The position numbers were made by a program, and so were the translations under genes. From Octopus vulgaris (lineage: Eukaryota), in assembly GCA_951406725.2 (NCBI GenBank), contig OX597822.1:77748001-77812000 (forward strand): 64,000 bases of DNA, in the 5' to 3' direction. The notes beneath the pieces are model-generated. The model worked only from the letters and a program-made list of their open reading frames with translations, was not told the origin of the DNA and did no database searches. Positions 4,901 to 52,604 of the stretch are shown one piece after another; the stretch's first letter is position 1; each line of letters begins with the position of its first letter.

Positions 4901-5892
4901 CTTTGTGTGTTCTACTCTAATGTTCTTAATTTAATCATTCACACGCACACCAGTTTTTCTCTCTCCATTCTGGACAGTTTCTTCTCTGATTATTGCACTG
5001 GACTTAGTCATCGTAGTGGTGGCCGTTGACAGGTGTTGTGGTGGTAGTGACGGTGTGGTTGACAGTAATTGACGGATGATATGTGCAGTGGTGGTTTAGG
5101 AGGCAGTGTTAGTTGCACTTAATAGTAATACTGTAAATTTTGTGTTGCTTATTGATGTTTATCCCTAGGTCAGTTCTGACTGAGTAAACCTATGATCAAA
5201 GACATTCCAGGCATGACCACCCTGTCTTTTAATTGTGTGCAGCAAATCCAGGACCACATTATTCAATATGCACTTTTTAAAGATATTCAGATGTAATTTG
5301 AGGAGTATTTAGCTGCTAATTTTAGAAGTTTGTAAAACTATCCAGAGGCTCCTTTGCTGGCTTCTTGCATCTTTATTTCTTTACATGTTACAGTCATTAG
5401 ACTGTGGCCATACTGGAGCACCATCTTCAAGAATTTTTATCAGTTTCTTTTGCCAAACTGCTTGGTTACAGGAATGTTAAACATAGTCACAGACATGGTT
5501 GTGTGGTAAGAAGCTTGCTTGGTTCCAAGTAAGTGTCTTTTATTACAGCCTTGGGCCAACCAAAACCTTGTGAGTGGATTTCGTAGACGAGAACTGAAAG
5601 AAGCCCATTGTGTATATATATATATAAGTGTGTGTGTGTATGTTTGTGTGTCTATGTTTGTTCCCCCATCCCCCATTGTTGATGTATTTACGTCCCCGTA
5701 ACTTTGCAGTTCGGCAAAAGGGACTAATAGAATAAGTAATAGGCTTACAAAGAATAAGTCCTGGGGTCAATTTGTTCAACTAAAGGCGGTGTTCCAGCAT
5801 GGCCTGAAACAAGTAAAAGAAAAAATACACAGGTTGTCAAGCAGTGGCACGGAACAGACACATGCACAAACATATATATATATATATATATA

Positions 5893-6168
5893 TTTATAAC
5901 AATAAGCGTTTTGCAACAAGTTGCTTGACCACATACCGAAAATTTTAGAAATAGCAGCTAAAAGACTACTATTTCCATTTTCTACAAAAATATGTCTCCA
6001 CAGACAACAATATTTGTAACTCACACATGGCAAAAAAGAAGAAAAACAATGAAATCAAACAGACATATTTTTGTAGTAAAAGGAAATAGTAGTCTTTTAA
6101 CTGCTATTTCTAAAATTTTCGGTATGTGGTCAAGCAACTTGTTGCAAAACCCTTATTGTTATAATTAT
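5893..6168. mobile_element. Fold-back/MITE-like element with ~105-bp inverted arms and a ~63-bp spacer, in a (TA)n tract
   Basis: 5893-5997 (tataacaataag...ttgcaacaagttgcttgaccacataccgaaaattttagaaatagcag...aaaaatatgtct) is the near-exact reverse complement of 6061-6168. Confidence 0.8.
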
Positions 6169-6289
6169 ATATAAAAAAAATTTTTGTATAAGTTTTTACT
6201 GAATATGGTCCTTTTCCATACCGAAAAACTACTAGGTGAAATTTGTTGATTTTATTAAATTAATTATCTTTCACCCTATATCTGTAATG

Positions 6290-7012: not shown

Positions 7013-8471
7013 TTGGGTCATCCCATAAATAGTTTAGCTTTTTATATAATTCTGTTATTTTTCAAAATGAAGATAAACAAAGTTCTTTTTTAATCCAAAA
7101 TATACTCTCCTTCATTTTCTACAATGCTCTTCCATCTATCTGGTAGACTTGCAAAGCCCCAAGGCAGCGATCTGGCAGAATTGTTAGCATGCTGGGCGAA
7201 ATACTTAGCCGTGTTTCGTCTGCTGCTACATTCCAAGTTCCAAAGAACAACTTTGCCTTTCATCCTATTGAGGTCAATAAATTAAGTACCAGTAAAATAC
7301 TGGGGTTGATGTAATTGACTAGTCTCCTCTCCCAAATTTTAGGCTTTATGCCTATAGTATAAAAGATTTGCATGGCCCCTCTTCCAAAATTCACTTAACT
7401 GTGACAAAAAAATATTCCTCCAGTACTGTTCTGATCTCATTTTTTCCGTCCAAATGATTTTGAAGACTGTGGAATAAATGATAATCAGAAGGGGCAATGT
7501 CTGGCAAATTTGGTGGATGGGACATTGTTTCCCATTCAAACTGCTCGAGTTTTTGGAATGTCATCCTTGCTGTACATGGTTGAGCATTATCCTGATGGAA
7601 GAACACTTTTCGTCTTGAAACCAAAGATGGTCTAGTGTGAACTTAAGCTGCTCAAGCTGCTCGCAGTAGATCTCCTTTGTTATTGTTTGGTTTGGGTTTA
7701 AAAGTTCAAAGTGGACTAAACCTTTCATATCCCACCAAACAGATAAGAACATCTTATGTGGGTGAATACCTTCTTTAGCCTGGGGTGCTGTTGTTTCTTC
7801 TTTCCCTACCCACTGTCTTCAGTGCCTGACATTTTTATAGAGAACCCATTTCTCATCACTGGTCACTATTTGGTCCAAAAATAGTTCATTCATGAGACAT
7901 GACAGTGAAGAAGAGCACACATTTACTTTATGCATGTGATTAGACTCTGAAAGTTTGGGAGAAACCCATTGATCCAATTTGCTGACTTTTCTGATGGTAT
8001 GCAAATGTCAATGAATGTTTGAATGAACAAATCCAAGCTTCTCTGCTAGTTTCTCAACAGTTACAATGAGATTTCGTTCCACCAGGATTTGCACGACTTC
8101 CACATCGATCTCTACAAATCTTCTAGGACAAGACTCGTCTTCTAGGCTTGGAATTTCTGGAACCATCGTTGACAGTGGCTTACATTTATTGTCCGATCCC
8201 CATATACTGCATTAATATTCCTTGCACTTTCCATTGCGTTGTTGTTATTGAACTCACAAAGCAAAATATGCTTCTTTGTCACTTCCATTATAGCTTTGAA
8301 AAAATAACTGTTAAAATCAAATTGCACTCTTCAAAACTTGCACTAAGAATAAGGACAAGGTAAAATTACTGCCTGCTTTTATAGCAAGCTGATGCACGTA
8401 GTTTATCCCATGCCCCTCTGACTTTTAGTTCATGCAATTGAAAAATCCGCATTATTTATGGGATGACCCAA
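7013..8471 (-). mobile_element. Full-length decayed mariner (DD34D) transposon with a SINE inserted at ~7165-7360
   Basis: TIRs ttgggtcatcccataaata / tatttatgggatgacccaa, with TA on the left. Fragments MEVTKKHILLCEF...CQRWFQKF, IVTSDEKWVLYKN, LSVWWDMKGLVHFELL, HQDNAQP and HPPNLPDIAPSDYHLFHSLQNHL. Several frameshifts and stops. Confidence 0.92.
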
Positions 8472-16409: not shown

Positions 16410-16619
16410 TCTGCTTTGTTTCCGGACAAACTGCAACCACATCACCATGGTCAAAAATGCCAAGTTGATGTGGCCAATCGGCCATTGGCTCAGTGACTGC
16501 ATTGAAGAACACAAAATTGCACCCTGAGAATGAGGTAGTTGATAAGATGTAGCTTTGCACATCTCAGGTAGCCTTCCACCTGATGAATTAATGTCTCACT
16601 CACTGAACTGACCACAACC
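16410..16619 (-). pseudogene. Inverted degenerate partial duplicate of the C7orf25 exon 5' end (19232-19439)
   Basis: Manual alignment of the reverse complement gives 28 mismatches and 2 single-base gaps over 210 columns (~86%). ORF track shows YLRCAKLHLINYLI and FVFFNAVTEPMADWPHQLGI. Frameshifted. Confidence 0.93.
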
Positions 16620-18649: not shown

Positions 18650-19160
18650 TATATTCCTAAAAAGAGAAACATCCTCATTGATACATTATTTACATTTGAC
18701 GGATAATTGTCCTCATCTTGTTTGTTAACGCAACATTTTGGCTGATATACCCTCCAGCCTTCATCAGGTGTCTTGGGGAAATCTCGAACCTGGGTTTTAT
18801 CATTCCTAAAGTATTTTTTTATATTATTATTATTATTCAGGTTACTGCCTGGAATCGAACTCAAAATCTTGGGGTTAGTCGCCCGCGCTCTTAACCACAA
18901 TGTTATTATTATTATTTACAAGAGTGGTTAAGAGTGTGGGCTGCTAACCCCAAGATTTCGAGTTCAATTCCAAGCAGTGACCTAACAACATCTAAAAATA
19001 CCTTTGGAATGAGAACCCAGGTTCAAAATTTCCCCAAGACACCTGATGAAGGCTGGAGGGTATATCAGCTGAAATGTTGTGTTAACAACAAGATGAGGAC
19101 AAATATCCATCAAATGCAAATAATGTAAATAATTCCTCGTCTCTTAAATATAGAACTGTA
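18650..19160. mobile_element. Palindromic element: two divergent copies of [tRNA-like head + AAT tract + Penelope-type hammerhead motif]
   Basis: 18650-18898 is the reverse complement of ~18923-19160 (ORF track FPKTPDEGWRVYQ on both strands). Head agtggttaagag..ggct.ctaaccccaagatt.cgagttc.attcca. Second instance at 30572-31071. Confidence 0.75.
19038..19083 (+). ncRNA. Degenerate minimal type I hammerhead ribozyme motif
   Basis: GACAC-CTGATGA-A-GGCTG(gagggtatat)CAGCT-GAAATGTT-GTGTT. The consensus of four copies restores CAGCC-GAAACGTT: stem I GACAC/GTGTT, stem II GGCTG/CAGCC, palindromic stem III AACGTT. Confidence 0.55.
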
Positions 19161-19232
19161 TTCTCATTAATATTTATTTACATTGTTGTTTACCCTTCTT
19201 TTTGCTTCTTGTTTGTTTTTCCTTTCTTCCAG

Positions 19233-20420
19233 GTCGGGGTCAGTTCAGTGAGCGTGGCATCACTCGTCAGGTGAAAGACTACCTGAGATGTGCAAAGCAA
19301 CATCCTATCAACTACCTCATCCCCAGGGTACATTTTGTGTTCTTCAACGCAGTCACTCAGCCAATGGCTGATTGGCTTCAACAACTTGGCATCCGTGTCC
19401 ATGGCGATGTGGTTCCAGTTTGTTCGGAAACAAAGCAGAAGCTGATGTCTGTACCAGAGTACTTTGATGATGACGATGAAGATGATGATGATGATTATGA
19501 TAGTGATTCTCTCGGTGATGGTGAAGATGGTGTTGCTTGTGACTCTAGTGAATATAATATCAATGCTACTGTTCTCAGTGATGATGATGATGATGATGAC
19601 GATGATGATCATCATGATGATGAGGATCATGATCATGATGATGTGCACAACAGCAGTTCCAACATTCTGCTTGGTGCTAGCATGTCATCAAGTTCAAATC
19701 CCAACCAGAATATTCAGCAGCTAGAAATGTCTAGTTGTGCATCCGTCTGCAATGAAATTAGTGCAGACTGCAAGCACTTGCTGCACATTGAGAAAACAGT
19801 GCAAACCACCATCGACGAGTCCATGTTGCATTTACGGCAGCTTATCGAGGAAGTGGAAGAGGAAGAGGAAGGTGAGGATGAAGAGGCGGGGGCGGGGCTT
19901 CCTAACAACGGAGATTCTCGGCAGAATCTCAGTTTGTTGTTGTTGATTCAGAAGTGCATCATGACGCAGGCACAGTCAATGCATTCCCAGCAAAGCCCAG
20001 CCAATTCTGCAATCTGTGTTGATGCCGACAACAATGGTGGCAAGAACATTGACATGAGCTCCATCATGTTTACTACTGATGCTTCTCATCCTGGAAACCT
20101 ACAGTCAGGCATCAACAAGAAACCACCACCACAACAACAACTGACATTTGCATCATCATCATATCCCTCTTCATATGCTTCTTCATCATCATCATGTACA
20201 TCATCATCCTTATCAATGGCAACTATCGAAAGAGGAATCAATTTTATCGGATCCGACCACATCCGAATCGTCAATTTGGACATCACCACTCTGATCACTC
20301 TGGTCTCTGCTGTCACACATGGACACTGCAATTTCATTTTCCCTGAGAAAATCCTTACCTTACAAGCTAAAGAAGAACGAGAGAAACCAGTCCTACCTCA
20401 AATGTTGGATTTCCTAAAAG
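19233..20420 (+). CDS. C7orf25: C7orf25/UPF0415 (DUF1308) orthologue, large internal exon (1188 bp, phase 1-1)
   Basis: Acceptor cctttcttccAG at 19231-32 and donor GTacc at 20421. Translation GRGQFSERGITRQVKDYL...PRVHFVFFNAVTQPMADWLQQLGIRVHGDVV and [45 protein letters not shown] matches, from recall, human C7orf25 (GRGQYGDKSII...; [29 protein letters not shown]). Confidence 0.92.
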
Positions 20421-20595
20421 GTACCATTTGCTTTTATGTATTTCTGCTTCACATGGTAGTGCATGGACCATTTGTTTTTCTTTCACTTGTTTCGTTCAAC
20501 AGACCTCAACCGTTGTGGGCCACAGTCTTAACCCTTTAAAATTTAGATTATTTTGTCAAATGCAAAGAGTTATTTATTCAATTTGTCTTGAATTA

Positions 20596-25094: not shown

Positions 25095-25871
25095 GAAATA
25101 AGGTACTCAGAAATCTGGATGGTTTTATATTTACAGATTTTTATTAATATGTCAACATGTTTTTATAAATCATATATATTAGCACTTGCATCCACTCTAG
25201 TGTATGTGTGTGTATATATATATACATACATATATATGCACATACATATATATATATGCACATGTAAATGTATATACATACATATATATATACACATACA
25301 TATATATATATATATATATATGCACATGTATATATATACACGCACACATATATATATATTCACATACCTATTTACATATATATCTCTTGCATTGTTTACT
25401 TGTTTCAGTCATTGGACAGCAGCCATGCCAGGGCACGACCTTTAAGTGTTTCTAATCAAATGAATCAACACCTGGGCTTATTTTTTTCTTAAGCCTGGCA
25501 CTTGTTCTATCGGTTTCTTTTTTGCTAAACTGCTAAGTTATAGGGGACATAAACAAACCAATGCAATCGCACACACACACATATATACACACAATGGATT
25601 TCATCCAGTTTCTGTCTACCAAAACTACTCACAGGACTTTGGTCATCCTGGGGCTATAGTAGAAGATACTGGCCCAAGGTGCCACACACTGGAACTTAAT
25701 CCAGAACCATATGGTTAGGAAGCAGGCTTCTTACCACACACTGCACTTATGTGTACATATATACATACATTCATATATACACATATTCATGTATATATAT
25801 GCATATATATATATATTGATACTTACAAGTATGTGTATGTATGTTATACCAACATATACCTGTATATAGAC

Positions 25872-25918
<47 letters not shown>

Positions 25919-26052
25919 TCATACATGTCTATACACACAAATATACATACTTGCATAAAAATATATGTGTGTGTGTGTGTATATATATATGCATATACAT
26001 AGATATATCCATATAATTATATGAATATATATATATATGCATATATATATAT

Positions 26053-26460
26053 AGGCGCAGGAGTGGCTGTGTGGTAAGTAGCTTGCTTACCAACCACATG
26101 GTTCTGGGTTCATTCCCACTGCGTGGCACCTTGGGCAAGTGTCTTTTACGATAGCCTCGGGCTGACCAAAGCCTTGTGAGTGGATTTGGTAGACAGAAAC
26201 TGGAAGAAGCCTGTTGTATATATGTATATATATGTATGTGTGTATATGTTTGTGTGTCTATGTTTGTCCCCCCACCATTGCTTGACAACTGATGCTGGTG
26301 TGTTTACATCCCCGTAACTTAGCGGTTCAGCAAAAGAGACTGATAGAATAAGTACTAGGCTTACAAAGAATAAGTTCTGGGGTCGATTTACTCAACTAGA
26401 AGGCGGTGCTCCAGCATGGCCACAGTCAAATGACTGAAACAAGTAAAAGAGAGTAAAGAA
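26053..26460 (+). mobile_element. Abundant tRNA-derived SINE (family A), representative copy
   Basis: Head ggcgcaggagtggctgtgtggtaagtagcttgc...ggttcattcccactgcgtggcaccttgggcaagtg (A/B-box-like), then a (TA/TG)n linker and tail ...gcggtgctccagcatggcc...gactgaaacaagtaaaaga. More than 15 copies in both orientations, e.g. 10870-11235(-), 13480-13890(-), 21530-21920(-), 48480-48850(-), 63323-63725(+). Confidence 0.85.
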
Positions 26461-27299
26461 AAGAGAATATATATATATTGACGTACATATATATTTGTAT
26501 GCAAGTATGTATATTTGTTTGTGTGTATAGATATGTATGATGTGTGTATATATATATGTAAGTATATAAATGCGCATGTATATATACATACATGCACACA
26601 CACATATGTAATACATATATACGTACGCAAACATTCATCTCTCCTCCTTTTATCCTCACAGTCACCTTCTCTAGTCTCCACATACATATGTGAGAAAGAT
26701 GTGTGAGATGGTTACCATGACAACTGTTGACGTAGGTAAAGATTTCTCTCCTGGAGCCAAGGTTCACTTCTTCTTTTGAAGAAACGACACTTCATCGTGG
26801 TGGTGATGGTGGTGGTGGTGGTGGTAGCAGTAGTAGTGGAGACAGTTGTATTGGGGTGGTTGATGTAATAACAATGACAGTAGTGGTTGTGATTGAATGC
26901 TGAGGGTGGCAGTAAGAGGTGGACGATGAGGCAGTAGTGTTGATGCTGGTGGGGTAGTGGTGGTGGTAGTTGTCATATTAGTGATGATGTTGTCAGGGTG
27001 GCGTTATGTAGTATTTGTGATTGAACGGTGGTGGGCAGGAGTGGCATGAAAAGTTGGTTTCCCGCTCTTCTGTATGAAGTAATTGTTGTTGATTTTGTTT
27101 GGTCCCAGGTGAGTCCGGATACCAGCTGACAGATCTAGGCTTGTTGACATTCCAGTAATGATCGCACATTCTTTTTCTTAGGCATTGTGTATCTAGGATT
27201 ACATTGTCCAGCATGTCCCCTCTGTACAGGATGGCATGGTGGGATTTGAGGGGAATTTGGTCGACCAATTTCCTCTCGTCATTTTTCTAACAATTATTA

Positions 27300-30179: not shown

Positions 30180-30364
30180 GGAAGAAGCTGTGCTGCTGTG
30201 AGACTGCACTGAGGGACTTTCGGACAATACTGGATACTCTGGGTGGAAAATCAGAACGACAACGAGCTGAAGAACTGATATCTAAGGTCAAGATTGTCCC
30301 TGACAGACCTTCTCAAAGGGCTTATTCTCTACCATTGACCAGCAAATTGAAAGAAAGGTCAAAG
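30180..30364 (+). CDS. C7orf25: C7orf25 orthologue internal exon (phase 1-0)
   Basis: Acceptor ccattgtAG at 30178-79 and donor GTttgt at 30365. GKKLCCCETALRDFRTILDTLGGKSERQRAEELISKVKIVPDRPSQRA resembles human [29 protein letters not shown]...VVPDQPSERA. Frame joins the previous exon correctly. Confidence 0.92.
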
Positions 30365-30571
30365 GTTTGTTATCTCTTACTCTTTTTGTTTTGTTTTTTT
30401 TTCAGAAAAAAAATCTAAGGAAATAAAACACAAAAGCAGACAGTATCATCATTTAACACAATGGTTCTCAACCATTTGTTTTACCTTTTTTTGCTATTTT
30501 ACTTGAGTGGACCCTCAGAGCCATTTGGTATATTTTAAAATCTTATATTTTTATAATTAATTATTAGGAAC

Positions 30572-30710
30572 TTTATTTACATTTGACGGATATTTGTCCT
30601 CATCCTGTTTGTTGTTAACACAATGTCTCGACTGATATACCCTCCAGCCTTCATAAGGTGTATTTGGGGAAATTTCGAACCTGGGTTCTCATTCCTAAGG
30701 TATTTTTTGA

Positions 30711-30751
<41 letters not shown>

Positions 30752-31071
30752 TCACTGCCTTGAATCAAACTCGAAATAACCACTATGCCATATGCCCATG
30801 CATATGGTGTAGTGGTTAAGAGCACTGACTACTAACTCCAAGATTCCGAGTTTGATTTCAGGCAGTGACCTGAATAATAATAATAACATCAAAAAACACC
30901 TTAGGAGTGAGAACCCAGGTTCAAAATTGCCCCAAGACACCTGATGAAGACTGGAAAGCATATCAGCCAAAACATTGTGTTAACAACAAACAAGATGAAG
31001 GCAAGTATCTGTCAACTGTAAATAAAGTAAATAATGTACATAATTCCCCATCTCTTAAATATAGAACTGTA
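30572..31071. mobile_element. Second palindromic tRNA-head/hammerhead element
   Basis: Centre aaccactatgccatatgc-ccat-gcatatggtgtagtggtt. Hammerhead-like cores at 30617-30662(-) and 30936-30981(+). Ends in ...tctcttaaatatagaactgta, as at 19160. Confidence 0.75.
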
Positions 31072-32434
31072 TTATTAGGAACTGTTTTTAAAAAAACTTG
31101 TTAGAATACTTTTTATAGGTGCAGACATGACTGTGGTAATAAGCTTGCTTCCCAACCACATGGTTGGTACCTTGGGCAAGTATTTTCTACAATAGCCTCA
31201 GGCCAACCAAAGCCTTGTTAGTGGATTTGGTTGGCGGAAACTGAAAGAAACCCATCGAATATGTGTGTGTGTGTCCATCATTGCTTGAGAACCAAATGTT
31301 GATGTGTTTACGCTCCTATAACTTAGAAGTTCAGCAAAAGAGATTGGTAGAATAAGTACTAGGCTTACAAAGAAAATGTCCTGGGGTCAATTCATTCAAC
31401 TAAAGCTGGTACTCCAGCATGGCTGCAGTCAAATGACTGAAACAAGTAAAAGAATAAAAGAATTGTAAAATTACAACCTGTTTATTGCTGATATATTTTA
31501 ACAACAAAATCTTATGTGGAGCCCCAAGGGTCTCCTTTTCCATCCTGGCATATACTGGATGGGTTGACAAGAGTTGATGAGCCAGGAGAATGTATCAAGC
31601 TCTTCTGTCTGCTTTAGCCTGGTTTCTATGGCCAGATGTCCTCCCTAATGCCAACCGCTTTACAGCGGGTGCTTTTTACATGGTACTGGCACCAGTAAAA
31701 TCACCAGATAACTCGCAAGGCTATGAGAACAGACCCCACCTCAACAGAGGAAAGAGTGATGGCTTTGTGTTGGGTGATGAGAGGCTAAAGTATGATAGAG
31801 AGGTCAAAGAAGGTATCTTGCTGTTGAGGGGACACATCGGTACCCCAGCTGGGAAAAGAGAGAGGAGAATAGAACTAGAGAGAGAGAAGCAAAGCAAACA
31901 AAAATATTTTTTCCTTTTATAAAATTCTTGTTCATTTTTAAGAAGCAGAGAATGGTTGATTGAATAAACCTTTGTCTTAGGTTACTGATATTTTATTGGT
32001 TCCAAACAATGAAAAGCAAATGTGGTAAGCTCCAGTGGGATTTGAGCTTGGAATGGCTTGGTCAGGAAAGCTGTATGGAATTTTTGTTTGTTTATTGCTC
32101 TCTCCCTCTCTCTCTCTTCTGGTTCTGTTGTCTTAATCAACATCACCATCATTGTCTTCATCATCAGCACTACCACCACCACGGCTACAACACATCCATC
32201 ACAATCACAAACACCTCGTTAACAACCACTACCATATATGTGTGTATGTATATATATATATGAGTCTGTGTGTATATGTATGTATATCTATATATATGTA
32301 TGCATGTTGATATATATATATATATATATGTATGTATGTGTGTGTGTGTGTATTGTATGTATGTATCAATTTCTCTATCCCTTCATTCAGCCAAGCATTC
32401 CACTCATATGTCAATCTTTATCTACTCTCAACAG

Positions 32435-32515: not shown

Positions 32516-33670
32516 GTAAAAATTTATTTTCTTTGTTCATCTGGCTGTCTTCTACTTCTTCTCCTCCTCTCTATTCTTCCCTTCTCCTTTTCCTTTTTTT
32601 TTTTCTTTCAGAATGGATTTAGATTCTTTGTATTTTTGTTTTTCCTTCTCATTCAGAGTGGAAAGAGGAAGAATGCATGAAATTCATGTCTTTCCCAAAG
32701 ACATTAGTATCATATTCTTATTATTCCTCATGAGGCAGCAACTTGGCAGTGTCATTAAAATTCCAGACAAAATGCTCAGCAATATTTCGTCCATCTTTAC
32801 ATTCTGAGTTCAAATTCTACTGAGGTCAACTTTGCCATTCATCCTTTTGTGGTCAATGAAATAAGTACCAGTTAAACACTGGGGTTGATGTAATCAGCTT
32901 CCCCCACTCCCCTAAATTTGAGGGCCTTGTGCCTATGATACACTGGTTCATTATCATTATTAATGTATACTCTTAAGGCGGTGAGCTGGCAGAATTGTTA
33001 GCACACTGGGTGAAATGTGGTATTTCGTCTGCCGCTAGGTTCTGAGTTCAAATTCTGCTGGGGTTGATTTGCCTTTCATCTTTGCAGAGTTGATAAAATA
33101 GGTACCAGATGTGTTCTTGGGTCGATGTAATCAACTTGCCACTCCCTGGAAATTGCTGGCCTTGTGCCAAAATTTGAAACCATTGTATACTCTAAGATTA
33201 CGAGCTGGCAGAATTGTTAGCACACTGGGCGAAATGCTTTGTGGCATTTCATTCATCTCTATGTTCCCAGTTCTAATTCTGCTGAGGTCAACTGTGCCTT
33301 TCATCCTTTTACAGTCAGTTAAACAAAGTACCAGTTGAGCCTTGGGGTCAATGTAATCGACTTACCCACCACCTTACCCAAAATTTCAGGCCTTGTGCCT
33401 ACAATGGATTATTATTTTTTCTCATCCTTACAAGGTCAATAAAATAAAGTACCAGTCATGCACTGGGGTTGATATAAAGGTCGATATAAAGGCGCAGGAG
33501 GGGCTGTGTGATAAGTAGCTTCCTTACCAACCACATGGTTCCAGGTTCAGTCCTACTGAACTTGGGCAAATGTCTTCTATATAGCTTTGGGCCGACCAAA
33601 GCCTTGTGAGTGGATTTGGTAGACAGAAACTGAAAGAAGCCCGTCATATATATGTGTATATATATATATA

Positions 33671-34747
33671 CATAGGGCATTGTCCTGCATGAATATGGGT
33701 GGTCGCTTAGTTGAATTTCTCAGCACAGGCAAGACATGATCTTTTACAAGTTGTTTATAAACTCCTGCATTTACCTTTCCATGTAATCGCACCAAAGGGC
33801 CCACACCATCTCCAGATGTCATCCCCCAAACCATGACACTTCCTCCACCGAATTTAACATTAGTCTTAAGGCATTTAGGCAACAATTTTTCACCTATTTT
33901 TCTACGAACGTACCTTTTCCCATCTGAGCCAAATAGCATAAACTTAGATTCATCACTGAAATGCACCGTTTGCCATTTTTCTTCAGACCACAACACATGT
34001 TCGGTTGCAAAGGTAAGATGACACTTTTTATTCTTGGAGCTGATCAGTAGCTTCACTGTAGGTGCTCTTGCTTGTAGGTCATGTTCAACTAAACAATGAG
34101 ACACAGTTTTTCGAGATAAAGTTTTCTTCAATACAATGCTCATTTTCCGAGAAACAGCAGCAGTTTTAAATCTGTCCTTTTTAACCAACTTTACCATAGG
34201 CACAATCTTCTCTCTTGGTCGTTTTTCTTGGCCTACCTGTAAACTTTCTTGCTTCACACGAACCACAATCATTGTAGACCTTAAGAATACTGTGTACAAC
34301 ACTTTTTGACTTGTTAACAATTTTTGCAATAGATCCAATACTTAAATTATCCTTCCTTCGAAGCTTAATAATCTGCTGACGAATTGGTAATGGAGTAAGT
34401 GGCATTATATTAACAAAGTACACTGCAAATATTCTTACTAATGTTTAGTAAACGAAGCGTCACGTAAACAAATTCAAAACATTAGAGTTTGCCGGTTAAA
34501 TATACTAAAACACGGAGTAAAAGCAACCGTTCTGATCATTTTGGCCACCATGTGTTTTGCAGTAAATCACTAAATCATCCATAACTTTTGTATTATCCTC
34601 TCAAATTACACTAAAATCTCAGGCTATAACAAATAATATCGTATTTATTTTCTGTGAAAATTATAGAATATAAAACAACTTTGATAAAAAATTATATCTA
34701 CTTTTCTGACTAAAACAATGCCGTTCTGAACATTTTGGCCGCCACTG
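33671..34747 (-). mobile_element. Tc1-family (IR/DR type) transposon, 3'-truncated
   Basis: End TA|cagtggcggccaaaatgttcagaacgg, with inner direct repeat ggtggccaaaatgatcagaacgg at ~34526-34549. Transposase from ATG 34405: paired-like HTH, GRPRKTT, WQTVHFSDESKF, KFGGGSVMVWG, IFMQDNA. One frameshift; truncated at a SINE (TA)n tract. Confidence 0.93.
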
Positions 34748-36622: not shown

Positions 36623-38176
36623 TATTGTTTTGAGCTAAGTGGGCAGGTGCTAGATTCCCTTGTTTGAAAATATAAGGACACAGATCATGTTGTATAGCCA
36701 GCTGCAGATGATGTCTCCTGGGGCTAAATTACAGCAACATTCGTCCTAAACCAGGACTGCTGTGTTATGTTGGCAAACAATCTTTACTATAAAAAAAATA
36801 CTTCAGGCTGCTGCCCCAGCATGGCCGCAGTCTAATGACTGAAATGGATAAAAAGATAGAGAGTGATGTTTTCTGTTCCATCTAACGTCCTCTTGTAATG
36901 TTCTGCTTGATTGCATTAAATTTGACATGCTTGAATGCATTAAAACTTCTTTCTTCAAAATGCATTGCTAAAAATGGAATGCACCTAATATGTCTGCGTG
37001 TCTTTTACGCCATCAAATGCAGTAATTATTTCATTAATTAAATTTAGTTTAATTAGGGAGGCCAAAAGATCGCATCAGTGAGTGACAGATAAAATTACTT
37101 TGGAGTATTTAGATAGTTTTGTTTGTGTTAAGAGTTCAAATCTCACAAACGTTGACTTTGCATTTCATCTTTCTTGGGGCTGATAAAATAAGTTCCACTC
37201 AAATAGCGGAATGGCTGTGGTAAGGAGAGAGGTTCACTTAATTTGGCTGCCCCACCCCTGCCCTCCTCCCTTAAAATTCATCTCGTTTATAGTTTTTATT
37301 CTTTAATTTAATAAAATTAATTAATTAATTTTTAATCCAGTGGAATTATGTCAGCATCTAGTTTGTAGATGTATGGCAAAATGCTTTGACACTATCACTT
37401 TATGGTATGTAATGCTACAATGGATGTGAATATAATGGTGTGTGTGTGTGTGTGGTGGAGTGTCTGTATCTTTTGAATGGTTGTCATAGTTCTTCTAAGC
37501 AGTAATATCTCTCTCTCTGTATTTGTGGGAAAACACACACAAACACATGCACACACATATATGAGGTGCAGGCATGGCTGTGTGGTTAAGAAGCTTGCTT
37601 CCTAACTCTATGGTCTTGGGTTCAGTCCTACTATGCAACACCCTAGGCAAGTATCTGCATCATCACCACCACCATCATCATCACTACCACAATCATTATC
37701 AACCACCACAATCATCATTATAAACAACTTTGTCACCAGAATGATCATCATCCTCTTCATCATTCTAGAACTGCTTTCCATGTTAGCATTTATTGCATGT
37801 GTCCTTGAAGCCCTCCCAGAAGGGATCAGAAGATCATATTTTGGTTGACTGTTTCATTTCGGTTTGGGCTTTATTTAATACACCACACCATTAAGTTGTT
37901 ATTGATTTAAGCAGAAACAACATAAAGTTGAAAGGGCTCTTTAGTTTTGTCTTCTTAGGGCATGACATCCCATCTAGTGCCAGCAGAAGACATGGCCATC
38001 CATCCTAGATCCATCATCAGAAATATAGAATTGTATTATATTCCTTATCTAATGGTTTAGAGACTAACTTTCTCTAACCTTAAATAATAGGGTCTTCATA
38101 TCCTTGTGAGTCATTCTCTGCAAGTATGACAATTTGGTTCCTAAAATGCTAAGAACACTATAATACTATATATATA

Positions 38177-38468
38177 CAGTAGTACCTCGGCTTTCGAACA
38201 ACTCTGATTGTGAATAAATCGTGCTTTATAGATAGATAGATACCTGCATATACACATTCATACATACACGCACAGATAGATAGATAGTCTCTAAACCATT
38301 AGATAAGGAATATAATACAATTCTATATTTCTGAGGATGGATCTAGGATAGAGAGATAGATAGAGAGGGATATATATATTGAGAGAGAGAGAAATAGATA
38401 GATAGATGGATTGATTTCAAGCATGATTTATTTGTGATCAGAGGTGTTTGTAAACCAAAGTACTACTG
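38177..38468. mobile_element. Tc1/pogo(Tigger)-like MITE with TA TSD, containing an inverted copy of its flank
   Basis: TA|cagtagtacctcggctttcgaacaactctgat...atcagaggtgtttgtaaaccaaagtactactg|TA. Confidence 0.75.
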
Positions 38469-38839: not shown

Positions 38840-39050
38840 GTGTGTGTGTGTGTATATATATATATGTATTGTCAGTGGATCATCCGATAAAGAGGTATAT
38901 TCTAAAGAATAGAGCAGTAATATATTCATATGCAGTTAAGTGACCAATGGTTTCGCATCCGTAAAGCACTTAACTAAGTGCTGTTTGGATGTGAAACCAT
39001 TGGTTACTCTATGACTGGACATATATTTAACTGCATTATATATATATATA

Positions 39051-52475: not shown

Positions 52476-52604
52476 GAATAAACGAAAATATTTCTATAAC
52501 TATATCTATGGTGAAGGTGCGTAGTTTAGTGGTTAAGGTTTTCGGCTCACGATCGTGAGTTCGATTCCCGGCAGCGCGCTCTGTACTTGAGCAAGACACT
52601 TTAT

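Follow-up and report, generated by a model that had tools for sequence, protein, structure and literature searches.

An octopus repeat of about 260 bases, non-coding and present in high copy number, begins with a tRNA-like head that has decayed; an AAT tract and a minimal hammerhead motif follow, and some copies add a 34-base tail. It was recognised at two loci in a stretch of 64,000 nucleotides of Octopus vulgaris DNA (contig OX597822.1; hereafter "the window"). The marks left by its insertion are those of Penelope-like elements (PLEs), and mobilisation of the PLE type as such is highly probable; the uncertainty concerns the role of the head. We consider it moderately probable that the repeat is a tRNA-headed non-autonomous element, transcribed by RNA polymerase III (Pol III), which the reverse transcriptase (RT) and GIY-YIG endonuclease of a PLE copy into ATT sites.

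Four related arms occur in the window, paired head to head at locus A (~18684-19159) and locus B (~30573-31070). The arms are 215-273 bp long and 81-87% identical in pairwise comparison. Each has a tRNA-like head, an AAT tract, a spacer, the hammerhead motif and ~45 nt of A-rich sequence, in that order, and the right arms add a tail. The original prediction, made from the sequence alone, placed four hammerhead-like segments here and described the arms as head to head at both loci; all four segments were found where it had placed them, in the same orientation. Locus A opens with an inverted arm (18684-18898, minus strand) comprising a slightly 5'-truncated head, the AAT tract and the body, with no tail. 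Its centre (18899-18923) is ~25 nt of AT-rich filler separating two 5'-truncated heads. The head of its right arm (A-right; 18924-18983, plus strand) retains the 3' part of the A box and a decayed B box at 18962-18970, and is followed by a shortened AAT/AAC tract and the spacer (18984-19037, plus strand), which ends in an acceptor-like pyrimidine run and AG at the start of helix I. Locus B has an inverted arm (30573-30797, minus strand) with a 5'-complete head that carries a 25-nt internal deletion, a long AAT tract and the body, again tail-less, and a right arm (30800-31070, plus strand) with head, AAT tract, body and tail. A near-perfect palindrome at 30790-30805 lies where its two 5'-complete heads meet.

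Separate head and body profiles detected no further copy of either part in the 64-kb window; the next-best match of the head profile, at 52526 (E 2.5e-4), belongs to a different SINE-like repeat. Both loci are intronic and lie in one gene with DUF5614 and DUF1308 domains. Locus A ends 73 bp upstream of the acceptor of an internal exon of this gene (19232-20425, plus strand), and locus B starts ~208 bp past the donor of a later DUF1308 exon (30194-30364, plus strand). Upstream of locus A, the first ~210 bp of the DUF5614 exon (19232-19439) recur at 16410-16619 (minus strand) as an inverted copy with frameshifts, which is ~85% identical to the exon and could pair with it in the pre-mRNA.

Each palindrome is a single insertion within a 13-bp target site duplication (TSD), a mark that had been overlooked in the original prediction. 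At locus B the two TSD copies (30560-30572 and 31071-31083, plus strand) match exactly and start with ATT (P 0.00066). At locus A (18671-18683 and 19160-19172, plus strand) 11 of 13 positions match (P 0.019 for at least 11), and the right copy starts with ATT. Both probabilities come from a null of match counts among 19,829 random AT-rich position pairs. A 34-nt tail is present on both right arms (19126-19159 and 31037-31070, plus strand) and on neither left arm. The right arms do have a common end, as had been reported, and this end is ...GAACTGT (19159 and 31070); the final A previously included in it belongs to the TSD. The element end thus directly abuts the TSD, the AAT tract is internal, and neither locus has a 3' end of LINE type, in which poly-A or a simple repeat would adjoin the insertion point. 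Past the right TSD of locus A, the host sequence at 19173-19185 resembles the end of the inverted arm (18684-18698) for ~13 more bases, hinting at possible microhomology between the target and the tail-less end.

The same asymmetry is seen in reads from the family as a whole. In a raw RNA run (X22), read depth falls from 3,944 in the body to 2,364 and then 1,668 across the tail, and loose read ends lie near 19126-19133 and at 19158-19162, giving two 3' end classes family-wide. No copy contains an open reading frame (ORF) for RT plus GIY-YIG; since each arm lies, at its 215-273 bp, inside its TSD pair, the copies are non-autonomous. The insertions readable base by base are loci A and B (n=2), and no empty allele was seen.

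Published PLEs offer close parallels to these marks. The hallmarks given in PMC8557442 are an adjacent inverted, 5'-truncated copy and a tail of 30-40 bp at one end. The PLEs of PMC3846280 have TSDs of 8-10 bp, a head-to-head orientation and palindromes at the inverted junction, and their pseudo-LTRs (pLTRs) of ~190-220 bp are described as sufficient on their own for mobilisation in trans. For the Anolis PLE protein, ATT is the motif cut most often, both strands are cut and extended, RT starts at two internal sites that bound the tail, and insertion is unaffected by hammerhead mutants (PMC11167929). The original prediction had the repeat mobilised by Penelope; the 13-bp TSDs, the ATT at both right junctions, the one-sided 34-nt tail and the two classes of 3' end provide strong evidence for that part of it.

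The hammerhead motif is of the minimal type in every arm. In A-right (19038-19083, plus strand) the motif is of type I and keeps all of its core bases, with a predicted cut at 19078/19079. The type I motif in the left arm of locus A (A-left; 18727-18772, minus strand) has G12>A and C15.2>T, both attributable to CpG decay. In locus B, the left arm (B-left; 30617-30662, minus strand) has G5>T, A14>G and G16.2>A, and the right arm (B-right; 30936-30981, plus strand) has G12>A, G16.2>A and one broken pair in stem II. Pairing is retained across the four arms in 19 of 20 cells of stem I and 23 of 24 cells of stem II. In the motif, A9 is followed by an additional base, the pair G10.1-C11.1 is present, a self-complementary ACGU replaces stem III, and position 17 is a U; A-right shows G-U wobbles at 10.1-11.1 and in stem III. 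The minimal hammerheads (min-HHR) of PMC4209133 are described with a helix I of five bp, a helix II of six bp, an additional base following A9, G10.1-C11.1, a palindromic 15.2-16.2 and no loop 3. The octopus motif fits all of these traits as described there, in agreement with its earlier identification as a Penelope-type minimal hammerhead.

A strict hammerhead descriptor matched once in the window, at A-right, and in none of 200 first-order simulated windows. An Rfam model search of the 64 kb gave no match at gathering score and, at E up to 10, only hairpin or chance matches; no Rfam model reaches the loop-less hammerheads or the tRNA-like head of the octopus repeat. The claim that deviations are mostly CpG-type transitions was confirmed for seven of the eight changes in the C-GAAACG stretch. 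An intact consensus core was also recovered: independent reads restore the core that is mostly lost in the window copies, and the loose-end consensus in three runs is CAGCCGAAACGTTGTGTT. Position 19080 is T in three of the four arms and in the read consensus, and C is found at 19070 in 74% of X22 reads and at 19075 in 55%. The arms contain no two-sided stem change. In a related family (below), the codons suggest C-G where the octopus repeat has U-A, a difference that a double CpG transition would explain as well.

Whether the motif cleaves is a separate matter. The copies had been judged probably inactive, and the core changes in three of the four arms fit that judgement, but A-right retains every core base. 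RNA read ends in the one raw run analysed (X22) do not pile up at the predicted cut site. Of one minimal motif in PMC4209133, the monomer was uncleaved and the dimer weakly cleaved. The locus A transcript is predicted to fold as one long hairpin (-293.9 kcal/mol, z = -31.9), and the 3' region of B-right has no special fold (z = 0.70). Because such a transcript would contain one sense ribozyme within a single long hairpin, the inverted pair should be unable to supply a ribozyme dimer. The pyrimidine run and AG at 19029-19038, found at the same place in the other arms, abut helix I on its 5' side. In Drosophila virilis this edge is where the intron of Penelope ends (PMC4209133), and the octopus run may be a relic acceptor.

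The head is tRNA-like in motif and spacing. When the four-arm consensus is numbered from its first G, T8, A14, C32, T33, A37, G53-TTCGA and C61 fall at their standard tRNA numbers; these are invariant positions of tRNA. The A and B boxes lie at tRNA spacing at the 5' end of the consensus and are decayed in every single copy, and a strict-pattern search found no arm with both boxes intact. Rfam gave no tRNA match for the head. ARAGORN made no call at default, and none on the four-arm head consensus down to a threshold of 70%; in relaxed mode it called a pseudo-tRNA on A-right, at a setting that gives nine calls in the window. The tRNA-like character given to the head in the original prediction thus holds for motif and spacing only. 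Its description of the head as SINE-like is supported.

The 5' boundary of the family lies at the start of the tRNA. Loose ends from X22 and from two DNA runs (X2 and X6), representing two organisms, agree to a few bases before the first G and then diverge (agreement 0.56-0.70), and they share a short self-complementary extension of the head start. The centre of locus B has the same start, both of its arms ending at tRNA position 1, and a gene-model peptide, P0013, opens with its translation. These observations place the boundary at the tRNA start, as would be expected of a Pol III template. Head depth is ~22-29% of body depth, in line with 5' truncation, although part of the decrease may come from indels in the reference arm. 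In X22, 476 reads run from the body through the AAT tract back into the head. This run contains host-embedded copies only: its reads are strand-symmetric (with too few exon reads to judge the strandedness of the library), 92% of them continue into unlike sequence, and no place has many starts or ends, the head included, so that the run gives no direct sign of transcription by Pol III. The lack of a T4 run on the sense strand is uninformative, since 44-68% of shuffles lack one too.

The repeat is abundant and was found in several octopus species. The stretch 18910-19340 was matched by 26,226 and 20,018 contigs in two DNA runs and by 8,576 of the 12.9 million reads in the raw RNA run, and summed depth is ~10,000- to 100,000-fold higher over the element than over the exon. 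Depth and contig tallies are not copy numbers, so the figure of tens of thousands of copies that they suggest is a likely order of magnitude. The stretch was found in runs of seven organisms, with a small share (0.16) in one insect metagenome (X20) that was left out of the analysis, and an exact 25-base pattern was absent from metagenome, viral and prokaryote contigs. Translations of the repeat occur in Octopus bimaculoides (P0001, P0013) and Octopus sinensis (P0029), and all named database matches were octopus. P0013 and P0029 are Octopus gene models (a short 'dystrobrevin beta' isoform and LOC115224785 isoform X2) whose first coding exon is made of a copy of the repeat, and both leave the element near the same residue; these exons are either exonisation or an annotation artefact. 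T>C differences at 18999 and 19029 reach 15-24% in RNA-type data (X22, X17) and are below 1% in DNA (X2, X6), and X22 has 21 A>G and 19 T>C places, compared with 6 and 6 in X6. This excess in RNA data looks like A-to-I editing of family copies.

A search with the chance translation of the element returned 25 proteins, many of which belong to a second family, found in ENA contigs, with the same ribozyme-coded stretch. The second family, known from translations only, often has two to four head-to-tail units of ~43 codons each. The motif is present in 41 of 57 translations examined; by the last unit, 19 of these are tailed, 18 are tail-less and 4 end there. An alignment joins the two families in their tail peptides (P0001 with P0032, 40% over 42 residues, E 9e-8), and in P0032 the tail continues into ~85 residues that, we presume, resemble the start of a Penelope/Poseidon ORF. 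A pLTR plus tail is described as encoding the first residues of the ORF (PMC3846280), and P0032 would fit this arrangement. Pfam, two Atlas searches and three locus searches gave neither a name nor support for the stretch of P0032 after the tail. An autonomous Penelope sharing the 3' module, envisaged together with the original prediction, was not recovered: three protein searches and one representative search yielded no RT or GIY-YIG protein for either family, and peptide-based locus searches found nothing. Longer proteins that hold the element translation were considered as partners and rejected as gene models with exonised copies or chance frames.

These data bear on several explanations of how the repeat spreads. 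That the palindrome itself is mobile, as a MITE-like element with long terminal inverted repeats or as the fixed inverted dimer of the original prediction, is very unlikely. Both insertions in the window (2/2) are indeed palindromic, each in one TSD; both left arms have T at 18989, a minority variant with a frequency of ~6-13% among reads and contigs, and a variant at 19025 is common to both right arms. However, the centres differ, with two truncated heads and ~25 nt of filler at locus A and two full heads joined directly at locus B, and the ends are asymmetric by the 34 nt of the tail. The 175 ungapped columns of the four arms contain 34 private changes and six informative sites, of which three sort by locus, only two separate left from right and one is crosswise. 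Inversion joints vary elsewhere in the family: four opposite-strand joints among 15 of 77 rows fall at four different position pairs, each in one or two contigs, a count to be read with the likely under-sampling of hairpins by reads and contigs in mind. Moreover, 549 X22 RNA reads that pass the 5' end enter sequence found nowhere on the stretch. An adjacent inverted copy is an ordinary product of PLE insertion (PMC8557442, PMC3846280), and TSD, one-sided tail and minimal hammerhead together form the published signature of such insertion, so spread as an inverted dimer is unsupported.

An animal retrozyme, in which the hammerhead would cut tandem transcripts to give circular RNA for rolling-circle copying by a PLE, would share with the octopus repeat a type I hammerhead and a likely dependence on PLEs, as proposed for non-LTR retrozymes, and the related family does have two to four head-to-tail units in its translations. 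This explanation is extremely unlikely for the repeat itself: neither of the two loci in the window has head-to-tail repeats, the element ends are tRNA position 1 and the tail rather than the predicted cut, where read ends do not accumulate, and retrozymes are described as promoter-less. A more serious competitor, though on balance a doubtful one, is that the copies are 5'-truncated derivatives of an autonomous or plain non-autonomous PLE whose terminal repeat contains an old tRNA-derived SINE with its AAT tail as a passenger, making Pol III irrelevant. All of the insertion marks are of the PLE type, pLTRs of ~190-220 bp suffice in trans, the AAT tract after the head resembles a SINE tail, and the head is decayed and has no RNA start site. 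Against a passenger, the sequence common to the family stops, in three runs, within a few bases upstream of tRNA position 1, and both arms of locus B end there; the window contains no solo head, and the loose ends listed have no common sequence upstream of the head.

We therefore favour the tRNA-headed, non-autonomous element mobilised by a PLE, for which the following cycle is proposed. A master copy would be transcribed by Pol III from the A and B boxes, and the PLE protein would bind the 3' module, which would correspond to the PLE pLTR. The target would be nicked on both strands ~13 bp apart, with reverse transcription starting at either of two sites 34 nt apart to give tailed or tail-less ends. 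Extension of both nicks, or folding back and self-priming of the self-complementary 5' start, would produce a head-to-head pair anew at each insertion. The hammerhead would travel as part of the module recognised by the protein and would remain intact in the template, since cleavage there would leave promoter and priming end on separate molecules and since folding of the motif needs a partner of the same sense.

If this model is correct, it matters for SINE biology. In the classical pairing, a SINE and its LINE have the 3' end in common, and a tRNA-headed family inserted with the marks of PLEs would clearly exemplify a SINE that depends on the third class of retroelements. For Sm-alpha and the retrozymes, as described, the partner is unnamed or a PLE is only proposed. 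A template of 260 nt with thousands of natural insertions would also make questions about the PLE cycle testable by counting, among them whether tails and inverted arms arise from two-strand priming or from self-priming, and whether selection on the minimal hammerhead acts on cleavage or on protein binding alone. The heavy RNA editing of cephalopods is likely to act on palindromic copies in introns. For a joint reading of these observations, namely a true Pol III SINE with a PLE partner, transcribed free of tandems, present in tens of thousands of copies in several octopus species, and with a self-complementary start that leads to edited double-stranded RNA palindromes in host introns, we put the chances at about even. 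On that reading, a tRNA promoter placed before the PLE terminal module would free the element from the need of a PLE for an upstream tandem copy in order to be transcribed, and the self-complementary start would lead, through head-to-head insertions, to long A-to-I edited double-stranded RNA in host introns.

The window contains further repeats. Inverted repeats at 5885-6173, 25201-26633, 37999-38352 and 38914-39034 were examined as candidates and rejected, as none matched the hammerhead descriptor or the head and body profiles. The first is a 290-bp palindromic repeat beside a TA run, with an arm identity of 83%. The third is a 354-bp element with terminal inverted repeats of ~75 bp (95%) and is probably a MITE; its terminal repeat includes a short stretch similar to the tail of the octopus repeat. 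Decayed open frames at 33577-34444 and 7391-7818 (both minus strand) resemble, by eye, Tc1-type and mariner-type transposases, respectively. At 52520-52575 another tRNA-like SINE is represented by its head, which has a clear B box and is unrelated to the hammerhead body.

Octopus already has tRNA-derived SINEs, OK, OR1 and OR2, reportedly described by Ohshima and Okada in 1994. Two of these, OR1 and OR2, are listed as CORE-SINEs (PMC4758252, PMC4824008). Compared by description only, the present repeat is likewise tRNA-derived, abundant and from octopus, and the family may already be catalogued in Repbase or Dfam or among the 1994 octopus SINEs. It has the head of a tRNA SINE (SINE2) without the LINE-type 3' end, and unlike a MITE it lacks symmetric termini and a fixed centre. 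A full-text literature search, judged by titles and the starts of abstracts, listed no paper on a tRNA-headed PLE-mobilised element or on an octopus hammerhead repeat; further context is given in PMC2377424, PMC8969392, PMC6962438 and bioRxiv 10.1101/596502.

The closest precedents for joining a tRNA-like head to a hammerhead are Sm-alpha and Sj-alpha of Schistosoma, in which a type I hammerhead comes after a tRNA-derived Pol III promoter and which are present in more than 10,000 copies (PMC6765202, PMC2770079). The octopus repeat shares with them the tRNA-like head and the hammerhead behind it. Sm-alpha, however, is arranged in tandem, and cleavage by its ribozyme takes place in cis or in trans, whereas the octopus repeat is tandem at neither of its two loci and combines a loop-less motif of the PLE type with a PLE tail and with insertion as inverted pairs. 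Neither a PLE tail nor a PLE partner is named for Sm-alpha in the descriptions consulted (PMC6765202, PMC2770079). The original statement that the architecture was not recognised as a named family must accordingly be narrowed: the tRNA head with a hammerhead has this precedent, while the whole combination was without a match in the literature as sampled. Non-LTR retrozymes are short non-coding hammerhead repeats proposed to be non-autonomous PLE derivatives (PMC7229834, PMC7761336, bioRxiv 10.64898/2026.07.22.740005). They are described as promoter-less head-to-tail arrays that give circular RNAs, whereas the octopus copies are dispersed, inverted and head-bearing.

The strongest parallels are with the PLEs themselves. 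Like the metazoan PLE min-HHR of PMC4209133, the octopus motif has the same helix, extra-base and loop-less palindromic traits, but it sits 3' of a tRNA-like head and its activity is putative. Opposite-strand pairs of minimal hammerheads 100-700 bp apart are already known from Schistosoma (PMC4209133). With the insertion units of EN+ PLEs (PMC8557442, PMC3846280, PMC11167929) the repeat shares an inverted head-to-head copy, a one-sided tail and a short TSD, as well as an ATT or AT-rich target, a palindromic inverted junction and a minimal hammerhead upstream of the tail. Unlike EN+ PLEs as described, the octopus copies have no ORF and no partial tandem at the two loci. The TSD is 13 bp, compared with 8-10 bp for PLEs of Adineta vaga (PMC3846280), and a tRNA-like head of the Pol III kind makes up the 5' part, compared with the internal TATA-less promoter that Penelope is described as having in its pLTR. 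Each part of the repeat is thus already known: the minimal hammerhead, the tail, the inversion, and the tRNA head joined to a hammerhead. What is new is that each palindrome is one insertion in a 13-bp TSD, with a 34-nt tail on the right arm only and centres that differ.
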